Part shown: piece by piece, positions 4,766-27,700 of the stretch
Numbering within the stretch: position 1 is the first letter of the stretch
Layout of the letters: each line of letters begins with the position of its first letter
Source of the DNA: Treponematales bacterium
GTDB taxonomy: Bacteria > Spirochaetota > Spirochaetia > Treponematales > Treponemataceae
Direction: 5' to 3'
Assembly: GCA_038248875.1 (NCBI GenBank)
Contig: JBBRWY010000006.1
Span: forward strand, 4,094 to 68,093
DNA: 64,000 bases
Notes under the pieces: model-generated
Told to the model about the DNA's origin: nothing
Seen by the model: the letters and a program-made list of their open reading frames with translations, nothing else
Databases searched by the model: none
Program-made: the position numbers and the translations under genes

Positions 4766-4766
4766 A

Positions 4767-5111
4767 TTATACAAGGTTTTTATCGTTCCGGTGCCAGGCA
4801 AACAGGGTTTCGCTCTCCTCGAGGAAGCCCTGCTTGAACCAGAACTCGCGCGCAGTAAAACGCACGCGGTCGGCATACACAAGCGGGTACTGTGACTTGA
4901 AAAAGTCGATTACCGCGCTTGCGAAGCCGTTGTGTTCATATTCGGGGTATATCATTATGGAAAAAATAGTGATCTTGTCTGCTTCGATCCTGCATCGTGA
5001 TTTTCCCACCTGAACCGTATCGTTTTCGATATCAAACCAGTCATAGTCCCCAAGCTCTGCGCGCCGTTCCTGACGTATTAAATCGAGTTCCCTTCCAATA
5101 TGTTTTTTCAT
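4767..5111 (-). CDS. Small GNAT-like acetyltransferase (putative)
   Basis: Start trimmed to MKKHIGREL (ATG at 5109-5111), which forms an ATGA overlap with the upstream stop. IMIYPEYEHNGFASAVIDFF resembles GNAT motif A. The longer ORF-track start would overlap the deacetylase gene. Confidence 0.5.
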   Translation of the reverse strand: MKKHIGRELDLIRQERRAELGDYDWFDIENDTVQVGKSRCRIEADKITIFSIMIYPEYEHNGFASAVIDFFKSQYPLVYADRVRFTAREFWFKQGFLEESETLFAWHRNDKNLV

Positions 5112-6491: not shown

Positions 6492-6493
6492 TT

Positions 6494-7108
6494 TCAGCCT
6501 TCTTCTTTCCGGAACAAAGGCTTGCCCGCCTCGGCGCGCACAAAACGACTGGCAAATTCGGCCGGCATAGCCTGGAATCCGTCAAGCACGAGAAAGCCGT
6601 TCGGCACAAGGGTATCGAAGAACATCTGGAGTACCTTCAGCTGATCTTCCGGAGTAAAATGCATCAGCACATTTTTACAGACGATCAGCGACTTATGATT
6701 TTCCGGCGCCTGAAAGGTCAAAAGGTCATGTTTCAGGTACCGCACTTTTTCTCGAATGTCCGGAGTGAGGCGAAAAGTATCCGGATCATCGGTGGCAATA
6801 AAATGCGTATTCCGAAATTTTTCGGGTACCCAGAATACGTCCTTCTTGCTGTACTTGGCTTTCTTTATGCGATTCTCGAACTGGGGGAAATTACTTTCCT
6901 CGAGATCTGTCGCGAGGATGTCCAGATTGCGGAAACTGAAGGGACCCAGGTGCTCGGCAAACACAATGGCCAGGGTAAACGGTTCTTCTCCCGAGGCACA
7001 TCCAGCATCCCATACACGAATTTCCTGCTGCTGGATCATCGCGGGCAGCGCTATCTTGACGATTGCTTCCAGAGCGTCGGGATCTCTGAAGAACGAGGTG
7101 TAGGCCAT
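6494..7108 (-). CDS. CheR-type SAM methyltransferase lacking the N-terminal helical domain
   Basis: Begins directly at the FFRD motif (MAYTSFFRDPDALEAI), followed by IRVWDAGCASGEEPFTLAIVF. The start overlaps the upstream stop by 1 nt. Confidence 0.75.
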   Translation of the reverse strand: MAYTSFFRDPDALEAIVKIALPAMIQQQEIRVWDAGCASGEEPFTLAIVFAEHLGPFSFRNLDILATDLEESNFPQFENRIKKAKYSKKDVFWVPEKFRNTHFIATDDPDTFRLTPDIREKVRYLKHDLLTFQAPENHKSLIVCKNVLMHFTPEDQLKVLQMFFDTLVPNGFLVLDGFQAMPAEFASRFVRAEAGKPLFRKEEG

Positions 7109-7569
7109 CAGTAACGGTAGCGGACGGAACTGAGCGTGATGTTCAGGGGTTCGTCTTCTGCGGTCATGAAGACCTTCGCCACGACGTTTCCTTGGGATTG
7201 TTTCTCAAAATATAGATACTGCGGAAGCTCCAGCTGAATTTCGGAACCCGTACCGAAATATGCCGACAGGAAGGCGCCGGCAATAATATTGAGCATTTCG
7301 AGAATCGAATCCTCGCCATTTTTTTTCTGGATGGAATCGGGTGAGTCTCCGTACAGATTTTCCACAATTTTGTTCCTGAGTCCCCCTGAAAGTCGCAGTT
7401 CGATACGGCAGGAAAAAGGAGCTAACACATCAATGGCCACACACCTTTCGTCTGTAACCGGAACACTTTCCGATTTCTGCACGTCGATGAATGCCATATC
7501 GGCGAAAACGGACGAGACACAGTCTGCAAGGAGTTCGGCAGCTTTTTCCGGATCAATATTATCGCTCAT
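7108..7569 (-). CDS. CheX-like CheY-P phosphatase (putative)
   Basis: 153 aa. DSILEMLNIIAGAFLS contains an ExxN (EMLN) in a context resembling the CheX/CheC active-site helix. Sits between cheY and cheR-like with overlapping stop/start codons. Confidence 0.6.
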   Translation of the reverse strand: MSDNIDPEKAAELLADCVSSVFADMAFIDVQKSESVPVTDERCVAIDVLAPFSCRIELRLSGGLRNKIVENLYGDSPDSIQKKNGEDSILEMLNIIAGAFLSAYFGTGSEIQLELPQYLYFEKQSQGNVVAKVFMTAEDEPLNITLSSVRYRY

Positions 7570-7943
7570 TGAGTACCTCCAAAAATGCGCATTATTTTTT
7601 CGGGAGAAACGGGTTTTTTTATGATGTCGGTAATCCCGAGTTTTTTCATTTCTATTTCTATTGAACCATCAGCAATGCTTGATGTGACGACAACCGGTAT
7701 GTGTGCGGTAACGCTTTTGTTTTTCAAAAGGCGGATGAAGGTTTGTCCATCCATCTTCGGCATATTGATATCGGTGAATATGAGGTCGATTGTGTTGTCG
7801 TCTATTATCGAAAGGCCATCGATCCCGTTCTCGGCATACAAGAATGCGTCAACCTCGATTCCGGTCATTTCGATGCACCGCTGGATAATCATACGGGAGG
7901 TTGGTGAATCATCGACGATCAAAACGTTTTTATAGTGTTGCAT
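7566..7943 (-). CDS. cheY: CheY response regulator
   Basis: 125 aa with VLIVDDSPTSRMI...DLIFTDINMPKMDG...IIKKPV. Confidence 0.85.
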   Translation of the reverse strand: MQHYKNVLIVDDSPTSRMIIQRCIEMTGIEVDAFLYAENGIDGLSIIDDNTIDLIFTDINMPKMDGQTFIRLLKNKSVTAHIPVVVTSSIADGSIEIEMKKLGITDIIKKPVSPEKIMRIFGGTQ

Positions 7944-7966
7944 TCTGTCTCTCCTTGGAACTGTGC

Positions 7967-8446
7967 CTAAATTTTCCAGTCTTTATTTCCGGAAGAAATG
8001 GTCGTTTCGCTTTCTCCGACCGTGATCGAAACCGTTCTACTTATTTCTCCACCGGTATCCTCGGCGACTGCACCGAGCGAGCTTTTCCAGAGGATACGCT
8101 TGGCGGCAAGAATATTCCGTTTTCCAATATCGAAGATCCCCTTGTCGTCCATAACCGAAGCGCCCCCAACCAGTTTAACCTGAATGTGTGCGCGTACAGA
8201 TCCTCGTCCTTTCATATCCTCAATCATTAAGGGCAACCCTCTATCTGCGAAATAGCCCGGGGTCTTTTTCCCTTTCTCGGGATCAATGGACGAGTCGGGG
8301 AGTGCGATATGGATCATGCCGGCAATACCAAGCTTGACATCAAAAATCATAACAGCGAGGCAAGATCCTAGAGCGTACGTTTTAATAACATCTCCCGGAT
8401 TTGAGGAAACAACCCATTCGCCGATTCCGACAACATGTACACTCAT
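7967..8446 (-). CDS. cheD: Chemoreceptor glutamine deamidase CheD
   Basis: YALGSCLAVMIFD...GMIHIALPDS. Size 159 aa. ATGA overlap with cheB. Confidence 0.85.
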   Translation of the reverse strand: MSVHVVGIGEWVVSSNPGDVIKTYALGSCLAVMIFDVKLGIAGMIHIALPDSSIDPEKGKKTPGYFADRGLPLMIEDMKGRGSVRAHIQVKLVGGASVMDDKGIFDIGKRNILAAKRILWKSSLGAVAEDTGGEISRTVSITVGESETTISSGNKDWKI

Positions 8447-9540
8447 GTTACTCTCCGTTTTTGTGGCGGGTCGCCAAGGCAGGACAGAATACTGCCGACT
8501 GCCATTTCAATAGGTATCAGTTTTTCCGCAGCACCATTTTGCCAGGCTTCTTTGGGCATACCGAAGACGACAGAACTTTCCTCATTCTGGGCAAAGCATC
8601 GTGCACCCGCGCGTCGCATTGCAAGAAGGCCGTCCGCCCCGTCCCGTCCCATTCCTGTCAGTATGAGTCCAATCCCTTTTTCCTTTGCAGCGGTCGCAAC
8701 GGATTGCAACAGGATGTCGACAGAAGGCCGATGTCCTGACACTTTGTCGCCTGGTTTGCATTCCACTCGCCACTCGAGTCCGTGCTTGTGTACCGTCATA
8801 TGAAAATCGCCGGGAGCGACGAGCACGAGGCCCTTGTGCACGAGGTCGCCGCTTTTTGCTTCCCGTACTTCAACATTTGAAACCTTGTTGAGCGCTTCCG
8901 CAAACAAGCGGGTAAACACCGGTGGCATGTGCTGCACGAGTACGACGCCAGGCATGTCGGCCGGGAATTGCGGGATGATGGTATTGAGTGCGGTGGTACC
9001 GCCGGTGGAGGCGCCGATCGCAATTATGCGGTTCTCGGTAGTGCTGGAAGTGTTTTCCTTTATGATGGTCTTTTTCTGGTCCGTAATCTTGCCCTGCAGT
9101 TCGCTTTGCGAGCGCCGCAGTTTGACGATGTCGGCTTTCGCGGCCCCTTTTATTTTTTCGGCTAGCTCGGCCAGCATTATACTTAATCCCGCGCGGTTGC
9201 TTGCTTCGGGCTTCGCAACGACTTCGACCGCGCCCGCATCAAGGGCGTCCATTGCACGTTTCGAGCCTTCGAGGGTAACCGCCGAAACAACCACGACGGG
9301 GACGGGATATTGGGGGAGGAGCCTCTTGAGAAATTCGATGCCGTCCATCCGGGGCATTTCGATATCGAGGGTGATGACGTCAGGTTTCAATAAGACGATT
9401 CGGTCGCGTGCCGAAAAAGCGTCGGATGCCTTTCCTACCACTTCAATTTCCGGATCCATGGACAGGCCTCGTTCCAGAAGGTCGCGCGCGATTGCGGAAT
9501 CATCAACGACCAACACCCGTATTTTTTGTTTTTGCGTCAT
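8443..9540 (-). CDS. cheB: Chemotaxis methylesterase/deamidase CheB (REC + esterase)
   Basis: Start trimmed to MTQKQKIRVLVVDDS (ATG at 9538-9540). Catalytic blocks IGASTGG, VQHMPPVFT, LTGMGRDG. Confidence 0.9.
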   Translation of the reverse strand: MTQKQKIRVLVVDDSAIARDLLERGLSMDPEIEVVGKASDAFSARDRIVLLKPDVITLDIEMPRMDGIEFLKRLLPQYPVPVVVVSAVTLEGSKRAMDALDAGAVEVVAKPEASNRAGLSIMLAELAEKIKGAAKADIVKLRRSQSELQGKITDQKKTIIKENTSSTTENRIIAIGASTGGTTALNTIIPQFPADMPGVVLVQHMPPVFTRLFAEALNKVSNVEVREAKSGDLVHKGLVLVAPGDFHMTVHKHGLEWRVECKPGDKVSGHRPSVDILLQSVATAAKEKGIGLILTGMGRDGADGLLAMRRAGARCFAQNEESSVVFGMPKEAWQNGAAEKLIPIEMAVGSILSCLGDPPQKRRVT

Positions 9541-10082
9541 TAATCGGCTCTCTGCAGTTTTTTGATGTCGCTGCCATCCTCGAGGAACATATACTCGTCT
9601 TCGAACCTGATTGATAGAGCGAGCCAACCGTTTGCCGGTGGCAGATCCTTGACCGCAGCGGGTTGCCCGTCAAGACTGGTGTACTGATATCCGAGCACCG
9701 GTAAAACGGCAAGGCCATCTCCCTTGAATTCCCAGGAAAGCGCGAGGTTCATCCGGTAATCATAGCTCGTCCGGCGATTTTCAAGAAGGAGGTCGCCGTA
9801 TATTATAACCCGCTTGACGCAGAGGTTTTGAGTAAATTCATAGGTCGCCTCGTAACATATATTTTCGGTTTCAATGCCCCGCAGGGTGGCGGCACAGAAT
9901 GCTTGTGCGTATGACTCACCATCAACGGTGTGCTCGACCACTTTCCATAATCCGGGTATGATCCGGGCTTTCGGCGCTAGAAAAGATGCAGAATATTCGT
10001 AGTTCCCGCTCTTGTTGGAGGACGCGAGAGACCCGGCAATGAGGTTCGTCATTTCTGTCAGTTTATTTTTTTTAATCGTCAT
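9540..10082 (-). CDS. Hypothetical protein, 180 aa, embedded in the che operon
   Basis: Uninterrupted ORF with an ATGA overlap to the parA-like gene upstream and a 1-nt overlap with cheB downstream. I recognised no motif. Confidence 0.6.
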   Translation of the reverse strand: MTIKKNKLTEMTNLIAGSLASSNKSGNYEYSASFLAPKARIIPGLWKVVEHTVDGESYAQAFCAATLRGIETENICYEATYEFTQNLCVKRVIIYGDLLLENRRTSYDYRMNLALSWEFKGDGLAVLPVLGYQYTSLDGQPAAVKDLPPANGWLALSIRFEDEYMFLEDGSDIKKLQRAD

Positions 10083-10864
10083 AGCGTTTCCAAAAATCCT
10101 TTTTCTATCACTCGTTTATAGTCGCGGGCGGCAAAGCTAGAAGGTCCGCATTCCCAAATCGTGCGGGACTTTTCGAGCGAACGGGTCATGTATTCCGATT
10201 TGCCGATTTCGAAAATGGGAATATGAAAGGACGAAAAAACCTCCCGGTATGTCTTGACCCGGTTCAGCCGATTTTCGGCCTTGGTAAATATAAGCGAGTG
10301 TATCTTGATCGGCTTGCCTGTTTCTTCCGAACAAATCCGAACTTCGTCCAGTATTGATTCCAGTCCCGAAACGGAAAAAAGCTGGAATTCCAGGGGAATA
10401 ATGACCGCATCGCTCGAGCGGATCAGAAGGCGTTCAAGCGGGCTATTGGAAGGGGAGGAGTCGATCAGGATCCAGTCGTACTTTTCGCGCACAGCTTCGA
10501 TGAAAGAGGGGAAGAGTGCGTATGTTTTGACGATGTCCGTATCATGCAGTTCGAGTTTTAGTTTTTTGTTATTCGCCGGAACGAGATCGAGATTCCTGCG
10601 CACATTGCGATGGATAAAATCGGCTGGTTTACATGGCTTTCCGGCAAGGAGCGCGTTCAGGAGATCCCCAAAATTCTGTGTATCTTTGGCCCCAAAAAAA
10701 AGTGAGAGGTTCCCTTGCGGATCTCCGTCGATGACTAAAACCTTTTCACCTTTTTTCGCGAGGCCCGACGCTATTTGAATGACCGATGAGGTTTTTCCTA
10801 CGCCGCCTTTCTGGTTGGCGACCGTCACGACCTTGAGTCCATTTTGGCGGAGACTTATCGACAT
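10079..10864 (-). CDS. ParA/MinD-family ATPase (chemotaxis-cluster associated)
   Basis: Deviant Walker A VANQKGGVGKTS, then VLVIDGDPQGN and ILIDSSPS. Confidence 0.85.
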   Translation of the reverse strand: MSISLRQNGLKVVTVANQKGGVGKTSSVIQIASGLAKKGEKVLVIDGDPQGNLSLFFGAKDTQNFGDLLNALLAGKPCKPADFIHRNVRRNLDLVPANNKKLKLELHDTDIVKTYALFPSFIEAVREKYDWILIDSSPSNSPLERLLIRSSDAVIIPLEFQLFSVSGLESILDEVRICSEETGKPIKIHSLIFTKAENRLNRVKTYREVFSSFHIPIFEIGKSEYMTRSLEKSRTIWECGPSSFAARDYKRVIEKGFLETL

Positions 10865-10870
10865 TTTGTA

Positions 10871-11725
10871 TTATTCTCCCTTTCGATATACTGCCGGTTT
10901 TACATACGAAAATGGACAGTCTTCCCTTCGCAAGGATTCTGAATGTCCGATAAAAAAATACCCGCCCGGCTTAACATACTGGAACAGCGTCTGGACAACT
11001 TTCCTGCGCGATTCCTGATCAAAGTATATCATTACATTGCGGCAAAAAATAGCATCAAATTGTCCTTTCATCGGAAACGTTTCGGCCATTAGGTTCAGTC
11101 TCTTAAAGAGAACCATTTTCTTGATCTCTTCACTTATGGTCATTGTATCATCCGTTTTTTTTCTGAAATACGCATTTTTATAGGCAGCGGGCAGTTCCCG
11201 CAACTTTGTTTCGCTGTAATCACCCCGTTCCGCCTCCTGGAGCGCGGAAAGGGAAATGTCCGAGGCAAGAAGGCCGTAATCGAGCATATCAAGCCGGTTC
11301 CCGTAGTATTCGCGCAACAGCATTCCAATCGAATAGACCTCTTCTCCGGTTGCGCAACCCGCGCTCCATATCCGCAAGGGGTATCGCGCCGACAATTTTA
11401 TTTTGTCCTCTATTCCCGGAAGGATTGTCTTGACGAGAAAATCGAAATGCTCGCGTTCGCGGAAAAAGAATGAATGGTTCGTCGTGATCCGGTTAATCAG
11501 TTCGCTCAGTTCAACGCCCGATTTGTCTGCGGCTAGATAGTCAAAATACGGGGTGAAAGCGCTGAACCCAAGCTGCCGGATGCGCTTCGAAAGGCGACCG
11601 GCAACCAGGATTCGTTTTTGCTCGCTCAAGTAAATACCGAACCGGTCATATAGCATTCCTGCTATGTACTTAAATTCGGTATCACTTAAGGGAACCAGAT
11701 CATTATTCAGTTCCATCATTCTCAA
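10871..11725 (-). CDS. cheR: Chemotaxis methyltransferase CheR (full length)
   Basis: FFREREHFDFL and IWSAGCATGEEVYSIGMLL, with the N-terminal CheR helical domain present. Confidence 0.9.
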   Translation of the reverse strand: MRMMELNNDLVPLSDTEFKYIAGMLYDRFGIYLSEQKRILVAGRLSKRIRQLGFSAFTPYFDYLAADKSGVELSELINRITTNHSFFFREREHFDFLVKTILPGIEDKIKLSARYPLRIWSAGCATGEEVYSIGMLLREYYGNRLDMLDYGLLASDISLSALQEAERGDYSETKLRELPAAYKNAYFRKKTDDTMTISEEIKKMVLFKRLNLMAETFPMKGQFDAIFCRNVMIYFDQESRRKVVQTLFQYVKPGGYFFIGHSESLRREDCPFSYVKPAVYRKGE

Positions 11726-12246
11726 ACCGCCAGGGAAACACCGGACAGATTTTCATCGCGCACGATTTTCTCTACATCGATCAGGATTTTGATGGCTTCT
11801 CCAACTTTACCCATACCGGAAATATACTGATCTTTGCCAGATATAGTCTTGAACTTGGGCGGAGGCTCGATGTTCTTTTCGAGTATCTCCATCACTTCTT
11901 CAACCGTGTCCACGAGGCAGCCGACCAGAATATGGTCGACTTCGGTTATTATGATACAGGTGCGGTTATCGTACGCTCGTTCGGCCATGTCGAAGCGAAG
12001 GCGTAAATCGACGATGGGGATGACCTTTCCACGGAGGTTGATCACCCCTTTTACGTAGTTTGGCAGATCAGGCACCATCGAGATGGTCTGCAGTTCGATA
12101 ATTTCGATCACATATCTGATGCCCACTCCGTAAGACTCTTTTCCTATTTTGAAGAAAAGGTATTTGTTCGCCTGAGTATCTTCGTTGTCATCGTCATCAG
12201 TCAGGAGTTCGTCCTGTGCTTCAGCTTTTCTGTTGTTCTCGGACAT
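11722..12246 (-). CDS. cheW: CheW coupling protein
   Basis: 174 aa with YLFFKIGKESYGVGIRYVIEII...VINLRGKVIPIVDLR. Confidence 0.9.
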   Translation of the reverse strand: MSENNRKAEAQDELLTDDDDNEDTQANKYLFFKIGKESYGVGIRYVIEIIELQTISMVPDLPNYVKGVINLRGKVIPIVDLRLRFDMAERAYDNRTCIIITEVDHILVGCLVDTVEEVMEILEKNIEPPPKFKTISGKDQYISGMGKVGEAIKILIDVEKIVRDENLSGVSLAV

Positions 12247-12260
12247 ACTTCCTCCTTTTT

Positions 12261-15128
12261 TTAGAACTTGCCGAAATTATTGTCGTCGAGCGAAATAATG
12301 TCGGCAGGATTGACCTTGGACGGTTTTGATCGAGTTACTGCTGCGTTTTGCATTTTAGCTGCAGATGCCATCGTTGGTGCTGATTGCCGGTGGGAATTGT
12401 CTCGATTGGCCAGTTCTGTACGGAGCATGGCCATGACGTCCGCATTGTTCATCTTTCCTTCCTGCGCCTTCAGTTTGAAACGGCCGAGCATAGACTTGAC
12501 CTGTTGTGCCTGAGATGACAGTTCTTCGGATGCCGAGGCGCTTTCTTCCGCGCTTGCCGTATTGCTCTGTGTTACCTGGTCGATCTGGTTGAGACCGAGG
12601 GAAATCTGTTCGAGGCCTTGCGTCTGTTCGCGTCCGGCCGTTGCCACTTCTTCGGCAAGGACTACTACCTGTGATGCGCCATCAACAATTTCGCTCAGTT
12701 GTTTTGCCGTACCATCCACGAGGACGTTACCGCGCTGGATGTTACTGATCGCTTCATCTACCATGATCGTCGTTTCTTTAACCGAACTTGCGCTGCGGAC
12801 AGCGAGGTTGCGAACTTCTTCGGCGACGACCGCGAAGCCTTTTCCGTACTTACCGGCTCGGGCTGCTTCGACGTTTGCATTGAGTGCAAGGAGGTTGATC
12901 TGGAAGGCGATGTCATCGATCGCGATGACGACTTTCTTGATTCCCTCTGCGCTGGCATTAATGTCCTTCATTGCGGAAACGAGTTCGTTCATCTGGATAT
13001 TACCCTTTTGAGCATTATCCTGTGCACCCTTGGCAAGGGTGTTCACCTTGAGAGCGTTTTCCGTATTGGTACGGGTCTGGCTCGAAATCTCGGTAGTGGA
13101 AGACGTAATTTCTTCGAGCGAAGCCGCCTGTTCGGTAGCTCCCTGCGAAAGAGCCTGGCTTGCTTGCGATACCTGCAGCGAACCTTCTGCTACCTGATCA
13201 ACCGCCGTGGTGATTTCGCCGAGGGTGTTGTTGATTGATTCGAGCGAATCGTTCATTGAGGTCTTGAGAATGTCGAAATCTCCCTTATACACACCATTCA
13301 TGCGCAGCGTCATGTCGCCTTCGGCAAGTCGGGTAAGGATAGCAATTGTTTCGTTAACCGGTGTGATGACGAGGTCGAGTGTCTTATTAACACCGTCGAC
13401 GATCTTCTTATAATCCCCCTGATGCTTCGTAGCATCGGCACGGGTCGAAAGCTTTCCGTCGATAGCTGCTTCGACAAGTATACTTGCATCGCTGACGAGT
13501 GCGTTGATCGCGACAATACAAGCGTTGAGGTTCGTTTTGATAATATTGTATTGCCCTTTGTACACCGAGGTAATCTGTTCGGGAATCGCTCCACGAGAAA
13601 TCTTGTCAACATAGTCGGCTGTTACCATCAACGGATTGACGATGTTGGTGATGGTTTCGTTGACGCCTTTGACCAGCTGATTCCATCCGCCGAGGAATAT
13701 GTCGGCGTTGGCACGTTTGTCCAGATCTCCGTCCGCTGCAGCCCTGATGATGACATCTGTTTCACGGAGGAGGTCACTCATCATTTTGACGACAGAATTG
13801 AGGTTGTTCTTGATGATGTTGAAGTCGCCATTGTAGGAATCGGTGATAACCGGCGGAATGACACCCTTACTGATATCATCAACATATTTCGCGGTGACGT
13901 TGAGTGGTCCGATGACTGCATCAAGTGTTTTGTTGACGCCATCCACGATCTTGCGGTAGTCGCCCTGGTGCTTGGTGGCGTCTGCGCGGGTCGAGAGTTT
14001 GCCGTCGACAGCTGCCTGCACGAGTAAGCCTGCGTCCACGACGAGCGCATTGATGTTGTCTATTGCCAGATTCAGGTTGTTCTTGATTTCGTTGAAGTCA
14101 CCGTTGTATGAATCCGTGATCTTCGGCGGGAGGTCGCCTTTCGAAATACGGTCAACATAGTTCGCTGCAACATTGAGCGGTCCGATAACGGCATCGAGTG
14201 TCTTGTTGACGCCTTCGACGATCGAATGGTAGCCGCCTTTGAACTTCGAAGCATCTCCGCGGGTGGACAGCCTTCCGTCCACGGCAGCCTTGGTGAGCAT
14301 CTCTGCTTCGCCGATCAGCGCTCCGACAGTCGCGATGACGCCATTGAGGGAGGTTGCAACCTGCATGAACTCATCTTTCGATTTGACTTCCATTTTTTCT
14401 GAAATATCGCCTGCGGCAAGTTTGTCAAGAATAGCGACAGATTTTTTGAGCGGATTAGCAATCGATGTGCCCAGAATAATTCCGAGGATGAGGGCAACAA
14501 TGAATGCAAGTATGGTCACAATGATAAGAATGACTTTACCCGTATTCGCGCTCTGTATTGCCTGTTTGGGCAGGTCGATTCCATAATATTGCTGGTCATA
14601 GGTAAGAACTTTTCTCACCGCGTTTTGAACGTTGTCGAAGACGAGTCGTTCATCGCCGGAAATAAGTGCATATATTTCCCGGAAATATGCTTCACGTTCC
14701 TCCGGTCCCGCGTTTTTCGCTTTTGTCGCGAGTTCCATTATTGTATTATTGTAGGCAGCCGCTGGCCCAATCAGGGCGGTAACTTCTTTCCAGAGTTTGG
14801 CCTCTTCGGGGACATTGGGAATAGCCTCGAATTTCTCGAGCGCTGCCTTGTAGGAGGTCCGCGCTTTTTCTATATTGGCCAACTGCCGCTTGTATGTTGC
14901 CTCGTCATCAATAGTCAGGGGATTAGAGAGCGTACGTATGGCTACTTTCAGATTGGTCAGTTCCAGATCGATAGAACTCAGGGCATTGAGAGAAGGGATG
15001 GTCTCTTCCGCTAAGGCAACTAGGTTTTTATCAAGGCTGCTTATCTGCATAATTCCCACTACACCAACGATGCCGCATAATACTGCTACGGCGATGAAAC
15101 CGGTAAGCAACTTGGCCAATATTTTCAT
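12261..15128 (-). CDS. Transmembrane methyl-accepting chemotaxis protein with a poly-HAMP array
   Basis: Two TM helices flank a ~170-aa extracytoplasmic domain. These are followed by four ~91-aa repeat units and then the signalling core [47 protein letters not shown] lies upstream of the ATG. Confidence 0.9.
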   Translation of the reverse strand: MKILAKLLTGFIAVAVLCGIVGVVGIMQISSLDKNLVALAEETIPSLNALSSIDLELTNLKVAIRTLSNPLTIDDEATYKRQLANIEKARTSYKAALEKFEAIPNVPEEAKLWKEVTALIGPAAAYNNTIMELATKAKNAGPEEREAYFREIYALISGDERLVFDNVQNAVRKVLTYDQQYYGIDLPKQAIQSANTGKVILIIVTILAFIVALILGIILGTSIANPLKKSVAILDKLAAGDISEKMEVKSKDEFMQVATSLNGVIATVGALIGEAEMLTKAAVDGRLSTRGDASKFKGGYHSIVEGVNKTLDAVIGPLNVAANYVDRISKGDLPPKITDSYNGDFNEIKNNLNLAIDNINALVVDAGLLVQAAVDGKLSTRADATKHQGDYRKIVDGVNKTLDAVIGPLNVTAKYVDDISKGVIPPVITDSYNGDFNIIKNNLNSVVKMMSDLLRETDVIIRAAADGDLDKRANADIFLGGWNQLVKGVNETITNIVNPLMVTADYVDKISRGAIPEQITSVYKGQYNIIKTNLNACIVAINALVSDASILVEAAIDGKLSTRADATKHQGDYKKIVDGVNKTLDLVITPVNETIAILTRLAEGDMTLRMNGVYKGDFDILKTSMNDSLESINNTLGEITTAVDQVAEGSLQVSQASQALSQGATEQAASLEEITSSTTEISSQTRTNTENALKVNTLAKGAQDNAQKGNIQMNELVSAMKDINASAEGIKKVVIAIDDIAFQINLLALNANVEAARAGKYGKGFAVVAEEVRNLAVRSASSVKETTIMVDEAISNIQRGNVLVDGTAKQLSEIVDGASQVVVLAEEVATAGREQTQGLEQISLGLNQIDQVTQSNTASAEESASASEELSSQAQQVKSMLGRFKLKAQEGKMNNADVMAMLRTELANRDNSHRQSAPTMASAAKMQNAAVTRSKPSKVNPADIISLDDNNFGKF
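13209..14288 (-). repeat. Intragenic tandem repeat, 4 x ~273 nt (91 aa), encoding the poly-HAMP units of the MCP
   Basis: Units start at residues 281 (AAVDGRLSTRGDASKFKGGY), 372 (AAVDGKLSTRADATKHQGDY), 463 (AAADGDLDKRANADIFLGGW) and 554 (AAIDGKLSTRADATKHQGDY). Each contains GVNKTLD...YNGDF..IK.NLN. Confidence 0.85.
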
Positions 15129-15204: not shown

Positions 15205-17457
15205 TTACTCGAGACGCATTGATAATAATTTTCCCGTATCTATGATAAAACTGACGCCGCCGTCGCCGAGAATGCTGCAACCGGATATGCCTTCGACCTT
15301 GCCGAGATACTCGGAAAGGGATTTGACGACTATCTGCTGGTTGCCGATGACCTCGTCGATCAGGATGCAGGCCTTGCGGCCGTTGTTCTGTACCACAATG
15401 ACGATGCCCTTGCTGGGATCGGTCACTGCGCCGGGAATCTTGAAGACCTCGGCGAGCTTTATCAGAGGTAAAAACCCGGACCGGATGTTTATGGTTTGCT
15501 CGCCCTTTTCGGTCTGCGTGACTTGTGCCGGCGTTACCTTGAAGAATTCGAAAATGTCATTGAGCGGAATGGAGTAACGGTTTTTGCCTGCTCGCACGGT
15601 AATGCCGTCGATAATGGCCATCGTAAGCGGGATGGTAAGAATGAACTCGGTGCCCTGACCGACTTCGGTTTTTATTTCGACTTTCCCCCGGATTCGTTCG
15701 AGGTTTTTTTTAACAACGTCGAGACCGACCCCGCGACCAGAAACTTCTGATACTACGTCTGCAGTTGAAAAACCTGGCTCGAAAATGAAGGCATAGGCAT
15801 CCTTGTCCGAAATGGTCGCCGGATCCTGTTTCAGAATCCCGTTTTTAGCAGCTTTCGCGAGAATTTTATCTCGATTGAGCCCCGCGCCGTCATCCTTGAT
15901 ACTGATCCAGATCTCCGAGCCTTCATACCGCGCATCGAGGTGAACCGTACCTGTTTCCGGTTTACCTGTTGCTTTCCGTACTTCTCTCGACTCGATTCCG
16001 TGATCGATAGAATTGCGCAGAATATGGACCAGTGGATCTGATATTTGCTCGATAACATTCTTGTCCATTTCGGTGTCCTGGCCCGAAACGATGAAGTTGA
16101 TCGGTCGGTCGAATTTGCGGGAAAGATCGCGCACGAGGCGGGTCATCTTCTGGAACAGACCGTCGAGCGGAATCATGCGGATCATCATGGTCGTTTCCTG
16201 GATTTCGCGACTGATCTTGTTAAGACTTGCGAACGACTTTGCAAAGCTGTCCAGTTTGAGACCAGTCAGATCGGCGTTGTTGATGACCATAGATTCTGCG
16301 GTAATCAATTCGCCGACCAGTTCGAATAATTTGTCGAGCTTGGAGGTGTCCACGCGGATTTCCTTGCGGACAACTTCCTTGCTTGTTTCCTGCTCCGGAC
16401 TCGGTCCTTGCGCTTTCTGGATTTTAAGGGCTTCGTTCAGGTCCTCGCGGGCGACCGATCCTTTCTGGACGAGGATTTCGCCGAGCGGGCGCTCCTGTTC
16501 GTCGAGGGCGTCCTGGATCGTTTCGTCTTTGATGACGCCCATGTCCACCAGAATTTCTCCGAGCGGACGATAGGGTGTCGGAGGTTCGGTTGACGTAACA
16601 GCCGGAGGCACGAAGGGCAGGTCAAGCGGGTCGGTATCCGCTTGTGTGATCGAATCGTTTCCAGCTTCCTGGATAACAAGCGTATTGAGACTCATCCGTA
16701 TACGATCTATGGTATGAATTATTGTATTGATGAATGGCTCACCCACCGGCGTCGGGCTTTTGCGTGCAGTGTCCAGCACTGTTTCGAGGTTCATACACAG
16801 GGCTTCAAGGAAAGAATATCCGAAGAACCCCGAGTTGCCTTTTATAGTATGAATCGCCCGAAACATGTCGTGAACCGCATCTGTACTCACTGCCTTGGGA
16901 TTGATCTCGAGTGCTATTTTTTCGGTACGATCGACGAGGTCGGCACATTCGCCAATAAAGCGTTGTACCATATCGCGGGTAACGAGGTCACTGAGGAACA
17001 GTTCGTTGGGAATGGCGGGTACGGCTGATTCTTTCGGTTTGTTACCATCCCGTAATGATTTGATCATCGCGGTTACAATAGAAGTCTGTTTTGCAACTTC
17101 TTCAGCGCCGCTTTCATCGGTATATTCTTTTTCCACAATACCGATCAGCTTGCGCAGAATGTCAACGGTTGCATACACCACATCAAGGGCATCGGCAGTG
17201 ACCGGCACTTTTTCCTTGAGAAAGACGTCAAGCATCGTTTCGGCTTCATGGGTCAATTTTTTGATATTTTCAAATCCCAGATAGCCGGCCGATCCCTTTA
17301 CTGAATGAAAAAGGCGGAAAACCGAATTTAATTGTGCAGTGTTGTCGCCATCTCCCAGACGGGATAATTGTGTTTCCGAATCGTCAAGACGTTCATACCC
17401 TTCTGCAACGAAGGAAAGAAGAATCTCGCGAGTTTCATCATCGATGCTTTTGGGCAT
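15205..17457 (-). CDS. cheA: Chemotaxis histidine kinase CheA (two HPt domains, no recognisable P2)
   Basis: Start trimmed to MPKSIDDETREILL (ATG at 17455-17457). HPt boxes FHSVKGSAGYLGF and IHTIKGNSGFFGY. N-box DPLVHILRNSIDHGIE, G1 IKDDGAGL, G2 SGRGVGLDVV. C-terminal CheW-like domain. Confidence 0.9.
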   Translation of the reverse strand: MPKSIDDETREILLSFVAEGYERLDDSETQLSRLGDGDNTAQLNSVFRLFHSVKGSAGYLGFENIKKLTHEAETMLDVFLKEKVPVTADALDVVYATVDILRKLIGIVEKEYTDESGAEEVAKQTSIVTAMIKSLRDGNKPKESAVPAIPNELFLSDLVTRDMVQRFIGECADLVDRTEKIALEINPKAVSTDAVHDMFRAIHTIKGNSGFFGYSFLEALCMNLETVLDTARKSPTPVGEPFINTIIHTIDRIRMSLNTLVIQEAGNDSITQADTDPLDLPFVPPAVTSTEPPTPYRPLGEILVDMGVIKDETIQDALDEQERPLGEILVQKGSVAREDLNEALKIQKAQGPSPEQETSKEVVRKEIRVDTSKLDKLFELVGELITAESMVINNADLTGLKLDSFAKSFASLNKISREIQETTMMIRMIPLDGLFQKMTRLVRDLSRKFDRPINFIVSGQDTEMDKNVIEQISDPLVHILRNSIDHGIESREVRKATGKPETGTVHLDARYEGSEIWISIKDDGAGLNRDKILAKAAKNGILKQDPATISDKDAYAFIFEPGFSTADVVSEVSGRGVGLDVVKKNLERIRGKVEIKTEVGQGTEFILTIPLTMAIIDGITVRAGKNRYSIPLNDIFEFFKVTPAQVTQTEKGEQTINIRSGFLPLIKLAEVFKIPGAVTDPSKGIVIVVQNNGRKACILIDEVIGNQQIVVKSLSEYLGKVEGISGCSILGDGGVSFIIDTGKLLSMRLE

Positions 17458-17536
17458 ACCTTTTTTCGCTCCCGATAGTTTATTTAAGTGTAGTTGACAC
17501 TTAAAAAAAAACAAGGGGTAAAAAAATAATTTTTGT

Positions 17537-18580
17537 TTATGCTTTAATAGCCCAACGGAGGCGTGCTGAACGGGCGCGCGGATTCGCGTATTTTTCGGCA
17601 GCCGTCGGGAAAATCGCCGTTTCGGAAACGGAACTGTAGAGGCCTGCTTCGAATCCTGCCATGAAGGATCCGGTGACGCGGCGATCTTCACCCGAATGGA
17701 AAGTGAGGATAGCGATGCGCCCTCCTTTTTTCATGCACAGGGGAATTTGGGCGAGCAGGGTATCGAGCGCCGAAAATTCTCCATTTACTTCAATCCGGAT
17801 AGCCTGGAAGGTGCGCCTGATTGTTTTTGTAATATCATCTTCGCTTTGGTGCAGGGGAGCGATGGCCGCCGTGACGGCTTCGGCAAGATCCCGGGTGGTG
17901 AGAATTTTTCCGCGGCGCTGGCAACAGACACGGGCAATGGCGGGTGCCTCTTTTTCGTCGGAATTGTCCCGGAGCAGGGCGGCTAGTTTTTTTTCGGGGA
18001 TACGTTCAAGGAGGAGAGCAGCAGAAGCTCCCTTGGACGGATTCATCCTCATATCGAGTGGGCCGTTTCGTTTAAAGGTAAACCCTCGCTCGGGATTGTC
18101 AATCTGCATCGATGACACCCCGAGATCGGCGAGAGCGAGGTCGAAGCCGCCGGGAACGTCAATGGTGAGCAGTTTGGGAAGTCCCGCAAAATTGATATGG
18201 CGGGTGCTGAAATTGTCTTCGGTAAAGCCTTCAGCTCGAAGGCGGGATTCGGTTTTAACGATTTCTATCGGGTCTGCATCAAGGCCCCAGAGCTTACCCC
18301 CGGGCAGGATGGTCTTGAGTATTTCCCGCGAGTGGCCGCCGTAACCAAGGGTGCAGTCAACTGCGATTTCGCCGGGCTGTGGCGCAAGAAATTCGAGGAT
18401 TTCCTGTACACAGATGGGGCGGTGGCTGCCGGCCGGGGTGTCTCCGCGGGCAATCACTTTCTCGATATCCTCGCGGTAGGAATCGGGATTGTGTTCCTTG
18501 TATTTTTCCGAGAAGGTATGGGGATGGGTTCCTTTGTAACGTACGCGTCGTTTGTGTGGTTCGACCGGCTCTTCATTCAT
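17537..18580 (-). CDS. rsmH: 16S rRNA (cytosine1402-N4)-methyltransferase RsmH/MraW
   Basis: DCTLGYGGHS, DLGVSSMQID, ILTFHSGEDRRV. Confidence 0.85.
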   Translation of the reverse strand: MNEEPVEPHKRRVRYKGTHPHTFSEKYKEHNPDSYREDIEKVIARGDTPAGSHRPICVQEILEFLAPQPGEIAVDCTLGYGGHSREILKTILPGGKLWGLDADPIEIVKTESRLRAEGFTEDNFSTRHINFAGLPKLLTIDVPGGFDLALADLGVSSMQIDNPERGFTFKRNGPLDMRMNPSKGASAALLLERIPEKKLAALLRDNSDEKEAPAIARVCCQRRGKILTTRDLAEAVTAAIAPLHQSEDDITKTIRRTFQAIRIEVNGEFSALDTLLAQIPLCMKKGGRIAILTFHSGEDRRVTGSFMAGFEAGLYSSVSETAIFPTAAEKYANPRARSARLRWAIKA

Positions 18581-24777: not shown

Positions 24778-27700
24778 ATGCGTCGTATTCTTTGTTTGCT
24801 CATCACAACTGTATCCCTTTTCCTGTTTGCCCCGACAACGTTGCATGCTGAATATGCACAGTTTTCGGTGCCTTCGACGGAATGGGAAGCTGGTGGTACT
24901 GTTGAACTGAAAACTGCCTGGGACTTTTACTGGGATCGATTGATCGAGCCTGAGGAATTCGTGGGCGATCCGGTGTTGGATGGACTGAAATCAGACCGAA
25001 AATTGGTTCCCGGTTTCTGGACGTACGACTCGTATCCTGTATATGGCAAAGCAACTCTCCGGCTTCTCTGCCGCAGCGATGTTCCTTTTCCCGATGCTAT
25101 GTCCTTGGGTTTTTATTCGATTTATTCGGCATACCGACTCTATGTGAACGGCCAGCTGGTCGCAGAAATGGGTACCCTTGGTGATTCTGCTGCAACCGAG
25201 ACCGGACGCGCTCCGAGAACTACCGTGTATTTTACGACGCAAAGTGCAAAAACACTCGATATTGTGCTCCAAATAAGCAATCATTCGTATTCAAATATCG
25301 GTGGTATCGGCGGTCCACCTGTTCTTGGCAGCCAAAAGGTGCTCGAGCAGAAACAATACCGCGAAAACCTTGTAGATCTGCTCGTGGCAGGTTCGCTCGG
25401 CTTCATGGGAATATATTTAATTACATTGTTTTTATTCAGGCGTAAAGACCGTTCTCCGCTCTACCTGGGTCTTTTTGCTCTCTCGCTCGTCATGCGGCAA
25501 CTCATGATATCCGGTGGCAAGAGCATTTTTCTGATTGTCCCCTTCATGGATGTAGTTCTCTGGGACCACCTGCAGCCACTGGCTATTTACCCCCTCCTGC
25601 CGCTTTTGATTTTATATGTGGTTACCCTTTTCCCTCATCCGAGGCAGCGAATCCCGGTGTTTTTTTTCTGCACCGAGTCGGTGGTGCTGATGTTCCTGTA
25701 CTACATGCCTGTTTCGATTGCGGTGCAGGACGTTTTTGTCTTGATACGCGATGTCTGCATGTTGTTCGGGCTCCTGTACGTCTTTTGGGTTTGTCTTATT
25801 GCCTGGCGAAAAAAACACAGCGAGTCGGGTCTCGTCGCCTTAGGCATGGTTTTGGTGATCATATTGGGTGTCAATGATGTACTAAACTCGATGAAAATTA
25901 TCAACACCAACTACTACATTACTTTCGGTGTGTGGTTTTTTCTGTTGTTCCAGTCGATCATCCTTGCACGCAGGTTTTCTCGCGCCTTCCAGTCGGTAGA
26001 GGATCTATCCCGGTCCCTCGCAGAAAAAACACAGACACTGCTTGAACTGGACGTGTTGAAAGACGAATTTCTTGCCAACACCACTCACGAACTCAAGACC
26101 CCCCTCAACGGTATCATCGGGATTACCGAGAGCCTTTCATCCGGTGATCTCGGTGATCTTTCGTCGGAACAGAAACGACAACTAAATCTGGTGGCTACCA
26201 GTGGTCGTAGACTTTTTACGATGGTAAACGACATCCTCGATTTTTCGAAAATCCGAAAAAACAAGATGCGTTTTTATCCGGTTGATCTCGATTTTCTGGA
26301 AGTCGCAAAACCGATCTGCGAAGTGTTTTCGGGCGAAACCCAGAAACGGGGCCTCTTTCTCGAAAATAATGTCGCTTCCGATCTGCCGCATCTGTTGGCC
26401 GATCCAGCCCGGCTCGAACAAATTTTGTACAATCTGCTGGGGAACGCGCTGAAATTTACCCCCAAGGGCGGCATTACATTGAGCGCGGGAACCGACGGCA
26501 GCTTTTTCTGGTTCTGCGTTGAGGATACCGGTATTGGCATCCCGCAAGAAAAACAGGAACTGATCTTCGAGTCCTTTCAGCAAGCGGATGGCAGCATTTC
26601 GCGCAAATTCGGCGGAACTGGTCTCGGACTGACCATAACTAAAAATCTTGTGGAAATCCAGCAGGGCATCATTACGGTCGCATCGAAGGAAGGGGAGGGC
26701 TCCCGTTTTACCGTGTACCTGCCTCTTGCTGACACCGCCTCTGGCTCTGATACTCCGCTGTACGAAGATGCGCGCGGGGACGAAGGCCTCGAGATGCTTC
26801 CCGAAATTGGTTCGCCTACCGAAATGATCACGGCTTTTCCTTCCCTCCCGAAAGGTGATGAGAGCATTCCGCTTGTGTTCATTGTTGATGACGAGCCGAT
26901 CAACCTGCAGGTGCTGCAGAACTTCCTTGCCGGTAGCCAGTATCGGGTAACGGTGGCCGGTGATGGCAAGACTGCAATCCGGCTTATCCGGGAAGGACTC
27001 AACCCGGACATTCTGCTCCTTGATATTATGATGCCCGGTATTTCCGGCTATGAGGTGCTCGAAGATTTGCGCAAAACCTATCTGCCGGTCGAACTACCAG
27101 TTCTGCTTTTGACCGCTAAAAATCAGACCCATGACATCGTCGCCGGATTTGCCCTGGGTGCCAACGACTACCTGACAAAGCCTTTTTCGCGGGAAGAATT
27201 GCTGGCGCGCATCCGGGCTCATATCGGGCTTAAGAAGATAAACAATGCATACAATTGTTTTGTTCCGCGCGAGTTTATCAACCTGTTGGGCAAGGAAAGC
27301 TTGCTGGACCTGCGTCTGGGTACCCAGATTCAGCGAGACATGACGGTGTTGTTTTCGGATATCCGCTCTTTTGCCGCCTTTTCCGAACACATGACACCGG
27401 GAGAAAGCTTCAGTTTTATCAATTCGTATCTCAGCCGCTTTGGACCGATCATCCGGCAGCACGGCGGTTTTGTCGACAAGTATATCGGGGACGGCATTAT
27501 GGCTCTGTTTCCGGGCAAGCCTGCCGATGCTTTGCTGGCAACCGCCGAGATGCGAAATCAGCTAGGCGTGTATAACGAACATCTGGTTAATACCGGGTAT
27601 GTGCCCATCGAGTTCGGCATCGGTATCCATACGGGTTCGGTGGTTATGGGCACTGTCGGTGAGGCTCAACGTATGGACACAACCGTCATGTCGGATGTGG

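Follow-up and report, generated by a model that had tools for sequence, protein, structure and literature searches.

The question raised by this locus is whether the CheA kinase of a Treponematales bacterium carries a c-di-GMP-binding module in the position of the P2 domain. Within the 64-kb stretch of DNA that was analysed as a whole (the window), the peptide RPLGEILVDMGVIKDETIQDALDEQERPLGEILVQKGSVAREDLNEALKIQ is the exact translation of positions 16417-16569 on the minus strand, and translation of the plus strand over the same interval yielded nothing meaningful. The ORF bearing the peptide spans 15205-17691 (-). The sequence GGGAGCGAAAAAAGGT lies upstream of an ATG at 17457 (MPKSIDDE...), which is most likely the real start of cheA. 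With this start, the coding sequence occupies 15205..17457 (-, stop included) and encodes a CheA of 750 aa, identical to a database cluster representative (P0001), in which the tandem-motif peptide corresponds to residues 297-347.

Using Pfam and an AF2 model of the full-length protein (pLDDT 84.4), we assigned the domain order HPt1-HPt2-MshEN_N-P3-P4-P5. The first HPt domain (P1, residues 7-138, 17044..17439, -; Pfam Hpt 11-98, five AF2 helices) contains the phospho-accepting His51 in FRLFHSVKG, invariant among 69 homologues. The second (residues 161-258, 16684..16977, -; a second Pfam Hpt stretch and an AF2 four-helix bundle) contains His203 in FRAIHTIKGN, with H203, K206, G207 and N208 invariant in the homologue alignment. 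A disordered, non-conserved linker (residues 267-292, 16582..16659, -; pLDDT <50, mean column conservation 0.22) leads to the segment of interest, which ends at residue 350 and is followed by a short disordered tether of ~15 residues (352-366, 16360..16404, -; pLDDT <50, conservation 0.37). The P3 dimerisation domain, which is short and T. maritima-like, begins at approximately residue 367 (367-427, 16177..16359, -; Pfam H-kinase_dim 367-426), and is followed by the P4 ATP-binding kinase domain (431-615, 15613..16167, -; Pfam HATPase_c 473-612 and AF2 model) and the P5 CheW-like domain (618-747, 15217..15606, -; Pfam CheW 618-747). All four Pfam domains (Hpt, H-kinase_dim, HATPase_c and CheW) scored above cutoff, identifying the protein as a CheA. 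The NCBIfam E. coli-type CheA equivalog was not reached (455 bits vs. a cutoff of 793), and we therefore regard it as a divergent CheA.

No P2 or CheY-binding domain was matched by Pfam in this CheA. In the AF2 model, residues 139-366 contained no α/β fold, the stretch being filled by the second HPt, and P2 was likewise absent from six non-spirochaete members of the clade described below. Pfam analysis thus confirmed the placement given in the original prediction, i.e., between a second HPt and the dimerisation domain. The full-length model shows the module folded, with disordered linkers on both sides, and is consistent with a folded bead sitting between HPt2 and the short P3, in the place of P2.

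The segment comprises two tandem copies of the 24-residue MshEN motif. The first, with its preceding Arg, consists of R297 followed by P298-Q321 (PLGEILVDMGVIKDETIQDALDEQ; 16495..16569, -) and matched the relaxed motif of Wang et al. (2016). The second, P324-Q347 (PLGEILVQKGSVAREDLNEALKIQ; 16417..16488, -), was assigned by motif fit and ortholog conservation, and the two are joined by the linker E322-R323 (16489..16494, -). Both copies fit the motif over positions 2-24; position 17 is Ile in copy 1, and position 11 is Ser in copy 2. All details of the original prediction were borne out, namely that copy 1 fits at every position, that in copy 2 a Ser replaces the first hydrophobic residue following Gly10, that Arg and Leu-Gly are separated by a Pro (in both copies), and that the spacer is shorter than in canonical MshEN. 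Counting this Pro as motif position 1, the spacer is 2 rather than 5 residues and the domain 50 rather than 53, giving a 3-residue gap in alignments to MshE, PilF and NF053729. The tandem motif is far beyond chance; none of 20,000 shuffled CheA sequences produced it, and the CheA segment was its sole match in the six frames of the window. A recent internal DNA duplication as the origin of the motifs was ruled out, the copies sharing 41/75 nucleotides.

The curated NCBIfam model NF053729 (“c-di-GMP_motif, MshE-related”; cutoff 38) matched the whole CheA with 48.3 bits (E = 6e-13) and the segment with 55.1-55.8 bits (E = 5e-15). The segment covered profile positions 1-53 of 53, and 49/49 orthologous segments matched the model at E<=0.001. 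Profile matches of the segment included PilF (2e-26), PilF GSPII-C (7e-12), MshE 5HTL (1.6e-6) and PilF GSPII-B 8PDK (1.6e-6), and the NCBIfam NfrB model aligned locally to it within the MshEN region of NfrB. The search with Pfam T2SSE_N (PF05157), which had been proposed as a check, gave no match at E<=10 with the full CheA, the 80-aa segment or seven related CheAs. This model describes a larger domain and evidently misses the isolated N-terminal subdomain; it is for this reason non-discriminating here, and NF053729 is the fitting model. The sole Pfam signal in the segment was a sub-threshold match to DUF4388 (12-19 bits vs. a cutoff of 25).

An AF2 model of the segment yielded four helices (299-305, 311-319, 325-331 and 337-350) with a core pLDDT of ~89. 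By Foldseek, its best PDB matches were the c-di-GMP-bound GSPII-B structures 8PFA, 8PDK and 9GL5 (rmsd 1.1-1.2 Å over 56 columns, 43-45% identity). The top set, i.e., 8PFA, 5HTL (MshE with c-di-GMP), 9GL5 and 8PDK, had rmsd values of 1.1-2.0 Å, a probability of 1.00 and query-normalised TM-scores of ~0.7. Next were the ligand-free PilB-N and PilF GSPII-A (rmsd 2.2-3.1 Å), and then unrelated folds. Sequence comparison likewise put c-di-GMP-bound MshEN_N domains nearest among solved structures. Given that 5HTL predates AF2 training, the agreement in fold is not independent evidence. The data show that residues 297-350 are an MshEN_N-type domain, i.e., the N-terminal subdomain of the MshE/GSPII c-di-GMP receptor. 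Vibrio cholerae MshE (5HTL) and Thermus thermophilus PilF GSPII-B/-C (8PDK, 6EJF) have the same tandem 24-residue motifs and four-helix unit, and their contact residues (Leu2, Gly3, hydrophobic 17, Leu21 and Gln24), whose roles have been described (PMC5013675), are identical in the window CheA. The host protein, however, is a secretion ATPase in those cases and a histidine kinase here, which lacks the MshEN_C or GSPII C-terminal α/β subdomain; isolated MshEN_N subdomains bind without this C-terminal part (PMC5013675). The MshE and PilF domains further differ in their 5-residue linker and 53-residue length, whereas the window CheA has the shorter values given above and Pro at the stacking position of both motifs.

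The ortholog survey suggested in the original prediction found the Arg, Leu-Gly, Gly and Gln positions retained, with both motifs kept in 115/120 orthologues at identities down to 54%. Across these 115 orthologues, Gly3 and Gly10 were invariant in each motif, as was Leu21 of motif 2; Leu21 of motif 1 was present in 114, and Gln24 was kept in 108/115 (motif 1) and 115/115 (motif 2). In motif 1, G300, I302, L303, G307 and A317 were invariant and L318 and Q321 nearly so; the invariant residues of motif 2 were G326, L329, A343, L344 and Q347. Ser334 of motif 2 is a local substitution, most orthologues having A, V or I there. Column conservation was 0.67 in the module vs. 0.22 and 0.37 in its flanks. 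All ligand-contact positions in both motifs were invariant or near-invariant, and the alignment shows strong purifying selection at the positions where the crystal structures of MshE and PilF place contacts with c-di-GMP. The alternative raised in the original prediction, that the segment is only a structural helical linker, is disfavoured because the Gln residues, which contact ligand yet are unneeded for the fold, are conserved.

We consider it probable that the segment is a genuine MshEN_N four-helix domain that replaces P2 and has a putative c-di-GMP-binding function, with an effect on kinase output proposed at lower confidence. The candidate c-di-GMP-type site in CheA is favoured by NF053729, fold and conservation, and a direct c-di-GMP receptor role for this CheA is supported by homology. 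The coupling to chemotaxis output that had been attached to it goes beyond the evidence, P3 being of the short type seen in non-flagellar spirochaete CheAs. A degenerate, ligand-free MshEN_N, serving this P2-less CheA as a compact structural spacer that determines how far the two HPt domains extend, is distinctly unlikely, although its linker is 3 residues below that of every characterised binder, Pro replaces the stacking Arg, Lys or Leu at position 1, and c-di-GMP genes are absent nearby. Non-binding MshEN_N domains are also documented, i.e., Xanthomonas campestris XpsE/GspE (PMC5013675) and PilF GSPII-A (PMC11731258). The contact positions substituted in XpsE (G11V, L29R, G40L, L54H, L58C and Q61V; PMC5013675) are, however, canonical here and near-invariant in the 115 orthologues; both Gln24 are kept despite being dispensable for the fold, and the predicted structure fits holo forms at ~1.1 Å.

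The linker and position 1 are the features in which this module departs most visibly from characterised domains. The linker reads [ED][RK] in nearly all 115 orthologues, and position 1 is Pro in 110/115 (motif 1) and 114/115 (motif 2), with Arg or Lys directly before it. The 2-residue linker, corresponding to a motif period of 26, was fixed in all CheA-embedded copies examined except the four-motif L063. Among ~300 adjacent motif pairs, periods of 28-42 were common and a period of 26 was rare (12 pairs). Exclusivity of period 26 to CheA was ruled out, as it also occurs in the non-CheA multi-repeat proteins P0131, P0142, P0188, P0238 and P0240. In the solved or tested MshEN_N examples that we found, the linker was always at least 5 residues, and our literature search found no binding measurement for an MshEN_N with a 2-residue linker and Pro at position 1. 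Pro at this position, without a long guanine-stacking side chain, argues against binding. Position 1 of the motif tolerates R, K or L, the stacking side chain being Arg in MshE and Lys or Leu in PilF, and Pro is permitted in the search motif as relaxed by Wang et al. (PMC5013675). The K/R-P-L-G start is common to the window CheA and PilF GSPII-C, where it reads K-P-L-G; the latter has a KD of ~500 nM (PMC11731258), measured on three motifs among which binding was not assigned. Because spacer length varies naturally and the long-spacer Aeromonas veronii CheA binds, we treat the short linker as a variant feature and not as grounds for exclusion from MshEN_N.

The same two features could instead reshape the pocket for 3'3'-cGAMP, pGpG or another cyclic dinucleotide, a reading that we regard as highly improbable. 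It draws on the weak cGAMP binding of V. cholerae MshEN, as given in a figure legend (PMC5013675), and on the fixation of period 26 in all but one of the CheA copies and its rarity elsewhere. In MshEN, however, specificity for guanine is provided by two backbone amides, that of Gly3 and that of the residue after it (PMC5013675), and this Gly is kept in both motifs. The half-sites are moreover equally conserved, as a symmetric di-guanine ligand predicts, and the predicted backbone superposes on c-di-GMP complexes.

With c-di-GMP as ligand, each module would bind one molecule, the guanines lying on Leu/Ile triads formed by L299 with L340 and L344 and by L325 with I314 and L318. Guanine O6 and N7 would accept hydrogen bonds from backbone amides at G300/E301 and G326/E327, Q321 and Q347 would hold the ribose-phosphate, and either Pro298/Pro324 or the Arg297/Arg323 in front of them may cap the outer face of each base. 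With lower confidence, we propose that the ligand alters the reach of the HPt domains to the P4 active site, given that the module is part of the chain joining them to the P3/P4 core. This might occur by stiffening or shortening of the tether, or by docking of the module on P3/P4. Kinase output would then be set jointly by receptors and cellular c-di-GMP, and either activation or inhibition may be proposed.

Fusion of MshEN_N to CheA has precedent. Wang et al. (2016; Nat Commun 7:12481, Suppl. Tables 4 and 6; PMC5013675) already listed CheAs of the type HPT-P2-MshEN_N-P3-P4-P5, and a CheA fragment from A. veronii, whose motif is more degenerate, bound c-di-GMP in vitro with a KD of 2.6 µM (PMC5013675). 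The receptor reading of CheA is therefore published as a class and is not new, and we share with Wang et al. the inference that c-di-GMP enters chemotaxis at CheA. As in the window CheA, the Aeromonas module lies inside CheA, ~12-20 residues ahead of P3, and in EKB11881, a fusion of this type, its offset to the ‘xRVD’ start of P3 equals that of the window CheA. The Aeromonas CheA, however, retains P2 and has one HPt, whereas the window CheA lacks P2 and has two HPt domains, each bearing its His. In the Aeromonas protein, motif 1 is degenerate (MLGQLLVNTGALTA...) and the spacer is ~9-10 residues long, as against two near-canonical motifs and a spacer of 2 here. What is distinct here is the absence of P2, the two HPt domains, the 2-residue linker, the Pro at position 1 after Arg or Lys, and the spread of the clade. 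While the taxa of Wang et al. were Actinobacteria and Proteobacteria, the present clade comprises Spirochaetota, Brevinematales, Desulfobacterota and a few other MAGs. A near-canonical MshEN_N is thus a fixed part of a CheA clade in several phyla, undetected here by Pfam. An exhaustive profile search returned ~12,900 superfamily representatives, mostly multi-repeat MshEN proteins, and is not a census of CheA fusions. A 2023 survey of CheA domain architectures did not mention the MshEN_N module.

Single-motif homologues were rare (P0111, P0117 and P0118). A more speculative and rather unlikely extension is that the period-26, Pro-capped MshEN_N defines a distinct receptor subclass used by a hitherto unrecognised multi-phylum clade of P2-less CheAs, in which c-di-GMP would directly gate HPt access to the kinase active site, the single-motif proteins forming the symmetric c-di-GMP site across the CheA dimer. 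If true, receptor state and second-messenger level would be integrated by the chemosensory kinase within one polypeptide.

Downstream of cheA, the remaining chemosensory operon occupies 7108..15128 (-). All on the minus strand, it comprises genes for an MCP (4HB+HAMP+4xHAMP_2; 12261-15128), cheW (11722-12246), cheR (10871-11725), a ParA-like ATPase (10079-10864), a 180-aa ORF of no family in the Pfam scan (9540-10082), cheB (8443-9627), cheD (7967-8446), cheY (7566-7943, assigned as an ORF) and cheX (7108-7569), the others being identified by Pfam. The gene order cheA-mcp-cheW is kept in related genomes. The unusual ParA-like gene and the uncharacterised 180-aa gene are among the points in favour of a protein-docking module in place of P2, with CheY/CheB, the ParA-like ATPase or the CheX phosphatase as partner recruited to the kinase, with or without nucleotide. 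The module lies in the exact position of P2 on flexible tethers, P2 is missing across the whole clade, and the same-fold N-terminal domains of X. citri PilB bind a PilZ protein and not c-di-GMP (7LKM series). We nevertheless consider docking as the primary function very unlikely. Surface conservation coincides with the set of c-di-GMP contacts and is not of the PilB-PilZ type, the X. citri domains fit worse (rmsd 3.1 Å, 19% identity), and the sequence points to no partner. Docking is also compatible with a c-di-GMP-binding MshEN_N, as it could be c-di-GMP-dependent.

No GGDEF, EAL, HD-GYP or PilZ genes were found in the window (~40 ORFs, Pfam and regex, with only spurious out-of-frame regex matches), nor upstream of cheA in relatives, and no diguanylate cyclase, phosphodiesterase or PilZ gene lay within ±4 kb of 52 related cheA loci. 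As there are no such genes nearby, genomic context lends no support to the c-di-GMP reading. The known routes from c-di-GMP to chemotaxis are PilZ adaptors acting on receptors, CheR, CheX or the motor, the sole evidence for direct action on the central kinase being the in-vitro binding constant of the Aeromonas CheA fragment. The Tlp1/Cbp1 PilZ-domain chemoreceptors, MapZ-CheR1, PlzC-CheX and YcgR-motor share the logic of a second messenger modulating chemotaxis signalling or output; these PilZ routes, however, use adaptors at the receptor, methyltransferase, phosphatase and motor, whereas the present CheA has a putative non-PilZ receptor within the kinase. Our literature search found no report of c-di-GMP acting functionally on any CheA and no follow-up to the 2016 Aeromonas binding constant. 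E. coli NfrB, a c-di-GMP-activated glycosyltransferase, also has an isolated MshEN_N-type module fused to an unrelated catalytic domain, where it is an allosteric c-di-GMP input; it differs in its output domain, in the C-terminal rather than internal position of the module and in its canonical spacer. The locus is well suited to testing directly whether c-di-GMP is integrated at the level of the kinase, and as a natural short-linker variant is a probe of the geometric freedom in the MshEN binding site. Should binding or regulation prove absent, it would be a clean case of an MshEN_N fold retained structurally.

Finally, P3 is ~60 residues long and aligned with the P3 of T. maritima CheA (4xiv, 1b3q), its match to the extended T. 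denticola P3 6Y1Y being marginal (E = 0.017 over 29 residues). The short P3 and disordered tether ruled out the segment as a piece of an extended 6Y1Y-type P3 helix. An extended P3 of ~110-120 residues and at least one P2 are features of the spirochaete F2 flagellar CheA (PMC10782961, PMC10703414), and the window CheA, with its short P3 and absent P2, falls outside this type. With so short a P3, the pathway is probably an accessory one and not the spirochaete F2 flagellar system. T. denticola CheA and Borrelia burgdorferi CheA2 (F2) belong to the same phylum and share the HPt/P3/P4/P5 core, but they carry P2 in one or two copies and an extended P3 of ~120 residues (6Y1Y); in the window CheA, P2 is missing, P3 spans 60 residues, and there are two HPt domains as well as the MshEN_N module. 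Its P3 is similar in length to that of B. burgdorferi CheA1, which is non-chemotactic.

Translation of the minus strand across positions 16417-16569 of the window gave the peptide RPLGEILVDMGVIKDETIQDALDEQERPLGEILVQKGSVAREDLNEALKIQ, with no sensible product from the plus strand over the same interval. The peptide lies inside an open reading frame at 15205-17691 (-). As called mechanically, this frame begins at a GTG 234 nt 5' of an ATG at 17457, and the region between them (17457-17691, -) overlaps an RsmH/MraW-like methyltransferase gene (17537-18580, -). The ATG has a purine-rich stretch 5' of it and yields a 750-aa product (MPKSIDDE...) identical to one database cluster representative; it is almost certainly the true cheA start. 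Numbered from this codon, the peptide corresponds to CheA residues 297-347.

The domain layout of the protein was established by Pfam scanning and from a full-length structure model (pLDDT 84.4). Pfam detected two HPt stretches, H-kinase_dim (residues 367-426), HATPase_c (residues 473-612) and a CheW domain (residues 618-747), with no match to P2. In the model, HPt1 (residues 7-138) and HPt2 (residues 161-258) are followed by a disordered linker (267-292), a four-helix module (299-350), a disordered tether of 15 residues (352-366), a short P3 (371-427), and then P4 and P5. No α/β P2 fold was present anywhere in the model, and the original prediction was therefore accurate in placing the motif pair where P2 normally sits. 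Assignment of the module to the extended P3 seen in spirochaetes (PDB 6Y1Y) was considered and excluded. The HPt pair (window 16684-17439 (-), residues 7-258) has an invariant phospho-acceptor His in each domain (H51, H203) and lacks a C-terminal receiver domain; a 2023 survey of CheA architectures found a receiver also present in >90% of multi-HPt CheAs (PMC10782961). Some non-spirochaete relatives (loci L030 and L049) have a second HPt without the His motif.

The Pfam T2SSE_N model, with which a search had been proposed, did not match CheA. The dedicated 53-position NCBIfam model NF053729 (cutoff 38 bits), by comparison, scored 48.3 bits against CheA and 55.1 bits against the isolated segment, and local NCBIfam matches extended to the MshEN region of NfrB, a c-di-GMP-activated glycosyltransferase. 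Searches of PDB sequences with the segment and its family profile recovered Thermus thermophilus PilF (2e-26), PilF GSPII-C (7e-12), Vibrio cholerae MshE (5HTL, 1.6e-6) and the c-di-GMP-binding domain of PilF (8PDK, 1.6e-6). From 49 orthologous segments, AlphaFold2 gave a confident four-helix model of the segment (core pLDDT ~89). In a Foldseek search of the PDB, this model matched best to c-di-GMP-bound PilF GSPII-B (43-45% identity; rmsd 1.1-1.2 Å over 56 columns) and c-di-GMP-bound MshE; ligand-free PilB-N and PilF GSPII-A came next and matched less well (rmsd 2.2-3.1 Å), followed by unrelated folds. Because 5HTL predates AlphaFold2 training, this agreement is consistent with the assignment, not independent of it. 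We regard the identity of the domain as MshEN_N-type as close to certain. A P2-like docking module is a less likely rival reading. Over the MshEN motif, at CheA residues ~297-331 and in related CheAs, Pfam DUF4388 (PF14332) repeatedly matched below threshold (12-19 bits, cutoff 25), a pattern suggesting that an MshEN-like helix-turn-helix element is part of that model.

Within the peptide, the fit of motif copy 1, the Ser following Gly10 of copy 2, the Pro between Arg and Leu-Gly, and the short inter-motif spacer all proved to be as originally described. The tandem motif was unique within the window by six-frame scan, and none of 20,000 shuffled CheA sequences reproduced it. Of the top 120 homologues, which range from 54 to 100% identity and whose named members are Spirochaetales or Treponema MAGs, 115 retained both motifs, with the consensus Y-[KR]-P-[LI]-G-E-I-L-V-D-M-G-..-A-L-..-Q-E-[RK]-P-[LIV]-G-E-[IL]-L-..-G-..-A-L-..-Q; loss of these positions in orthologues, which would have told against the original prediction, was not observed. 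In those 115 sequences both copies of Gly3, both copies of Gly10 and the second Leu21 were invariant, the first Leu21 was kept in 114, and Gln24 in 108 (motif 1) and 115 (motif 2). The copy 2 Ser is a peculiarity local to the closest relatives, most orthologues having A, V or I. All 49 orthologous segments passed NF053729. In MshEN, each guanine rests on a triad of Leu2, Leu17 and Leu21, its O6/N7 edge is read by the main-chain amides of Gly3 and of the residue after it, and the ribose-phosphate is held by Gln24 (Wang et al., 2016; PMC5013675). The positions conserved in the CheA orthologues are these c-di-GMP contacts, and known non-binders such as XpsE have substitutions at exactly the same positions (PMC5013675). 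The module is strung on tethers of ~30 residues to HPt2 and ~15 residues to P3, and its mean column conservation was 0.67, as against 0.22 and 0.37 for the flanking linkers. The data show that the bead is a folded MshEN_N-type domain and that purifying selection acts on its ligand-contact positions. A degenerate structural spacer is a less likely alternative.

The module departs from canonical MshEN_N in its inter-motif linker, which has 2 residues instead of 5 and leaves a 3-residue gap whenever the segment is aligned to MshE, PilF or the NCBIfam model. Using the segment profile, we searched species-representative genomes for motif pairs upstream of a CheA core. At all such loci but one, Gln and Leu-Gly were separated by 3 residues, which read [ED][RK]P almost throughout (QKP or HMK in two loci); these loci belong to Treponemataceae, Spirochaetales, Brevinematales, Salinispira and Desulfobacterales/Desulfobulbia, as well as to single Planctomycetota and Pseudomonadota MAGs. 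The non-CheA MshEN_N loci in the scan all had spacers of 5-8 residues. The sole CheA-embedded example without the 2-residue linker, in a Hydrogenedentota MAG (L063, CheA ORF ~3280-5560), has four consecutive MshEN motifs, i.e., (MshEN_N)x2, with spacers of 7-8 residues. The period of 26 given by the 2-residue linker also turns up outside CheA: it occurred in 12 of ~300 adjacent motif pairs from the top 148 superfamily representatives, and some of these pairs lie in non-CheA repeat proteins. A further departure is Pro at motif position 1, with Arg or Lys just before it. This position is tolerant, since PilF GSPII-B variants still bind c-di-GMP (K167L at 2 nM and K167R at 150 nM, wild type 6 nM; PMC11731258). 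PilF GSPII-C, which binds at ~500 nM (PMC11731258), has the K-P-L-G start in common with the CheA module, and the relaxed motif with which Wang et al. searched allows Pro (PMC5013675). The MshEN_C subdomain is absent from CheA; MshEN_N alone suffices for binding (PMC5013675). A shift in ligand specificity brought about by the short linker is a less likely alternative; we found no binding test of any protein with a 2-residue linker in the searchable literature. Three CheA homologues (P0111, P0117 and P0118) have a single 24-residue motif only (YKHIGEILVxxGxxKPEDLKKxLEIQ). As CheA is dimeric and c-di-GMP two-fold symmetric, two such motifs might form one composite site across the dimer, a candidate arrangement.

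The central proposal, that CheA is a c-di-GMP receptor, was already in print: in their 2016 study, Wang et al. named CheA as one of the partners of MshEN_N and reported a KD of 2.6 µM for residues 261-390 of Aeromonas veronii CheA (PMC5013675). We found no reference to MshEN in the survey of 2023 (PMC10782961) and, in the searchable literature, no functional study of c-di-GMP acting on any CheA and no description of the P2-less, double-HPt, 2-residue-linker form or of its occurrence in Spirochaetota. Binding of c-di-GMP by the present module is likely, and would involve one molecule held in the MshE/PilF mode. Ordering or docking of the bead upon ligand would alter autophosphorylation or phosphotransfer, because the HPt domains reach the P4 active site on the same string. 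In that case c-di-GMP would affect the output of the kinase, with a sign that is not inferable; for such a direct effect we consider the chances to be even.

The cheA gene is the first of a complete chemosensory operon encoded by the minus strand. It is followed by the gene for a 955-aa MCP (12261-15128, -), an unusually long poly-HAMP transducer with a 4HB sensor, HAMP and four HAMP_2 repeats (PF18947, 381 bits) before the signalling domain, and then by cheW, cheR, a ParA-like ATPase gene, a 180-aa ORF, cheB, cheD, cheY (7566-7943) and cheX. The ParA/MinD-like ATPase (AAA_31) and the adjacent ORF, which has no Pfam match, lie at 9540-10864 (-) between cheR and cheB and are reminiscent of ParC/PpfA-type systems that position chemosensory arrays. 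The operon ends, after cheX, with three genes at 5108-7108 (-) that are unusual company for chemotaxis genes: they encode a CheR-like methyltransferase without the N-terminal CheR_N, a protein with the metallo-β-lactamase fold and a member of the histone deacetylase family. The order (PAS-HK)-cheA-mcp-cheW is kept in relatives. We looked for GGDEF, EAL, HD-GYP and PilZ genes throughout the window, among the genes that precede cheA in relatives and in the 4 kb on either side of 52 related loci, and found none; the genomic context is neutral on the c-di-GMP reading, neither supporting nor contradicting it.

[quoted passage not shown] Unlike the flagellar proteins, the CheA described here combines a short P3 with two HPt domains that each carry a His, and it lacks P2; on these features it probably belongs to an accessory pathway, and the chemotaxis output of the original prediction is better read as the output of this particular chemosensory pathway. 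Clade members outside the spirochaetes also have a short P3 and no P2, with one or two HPt domains. Complete genomes with the clade include OW818665.1, OY762953.2 and CP053071.1.

Two further genes in the window were noted. A 1100-aa protein (24778-28080, +) combines 7TMR-DISM, histidine kinase, receiver and class III adenylate/guanylate cyclase domains; no other nucleotide cyclase was seen in the window, and this one is not of the diguanylate type. A 762-aa protein (29887-32175, +) joins 4Fe-4S clusters and a domain resembling the Fe-only-hydrogenase large subunit to the signalling domain of an MCP, which makes it a candidate for a soluble chemoreceptor that senses redox state or H2.
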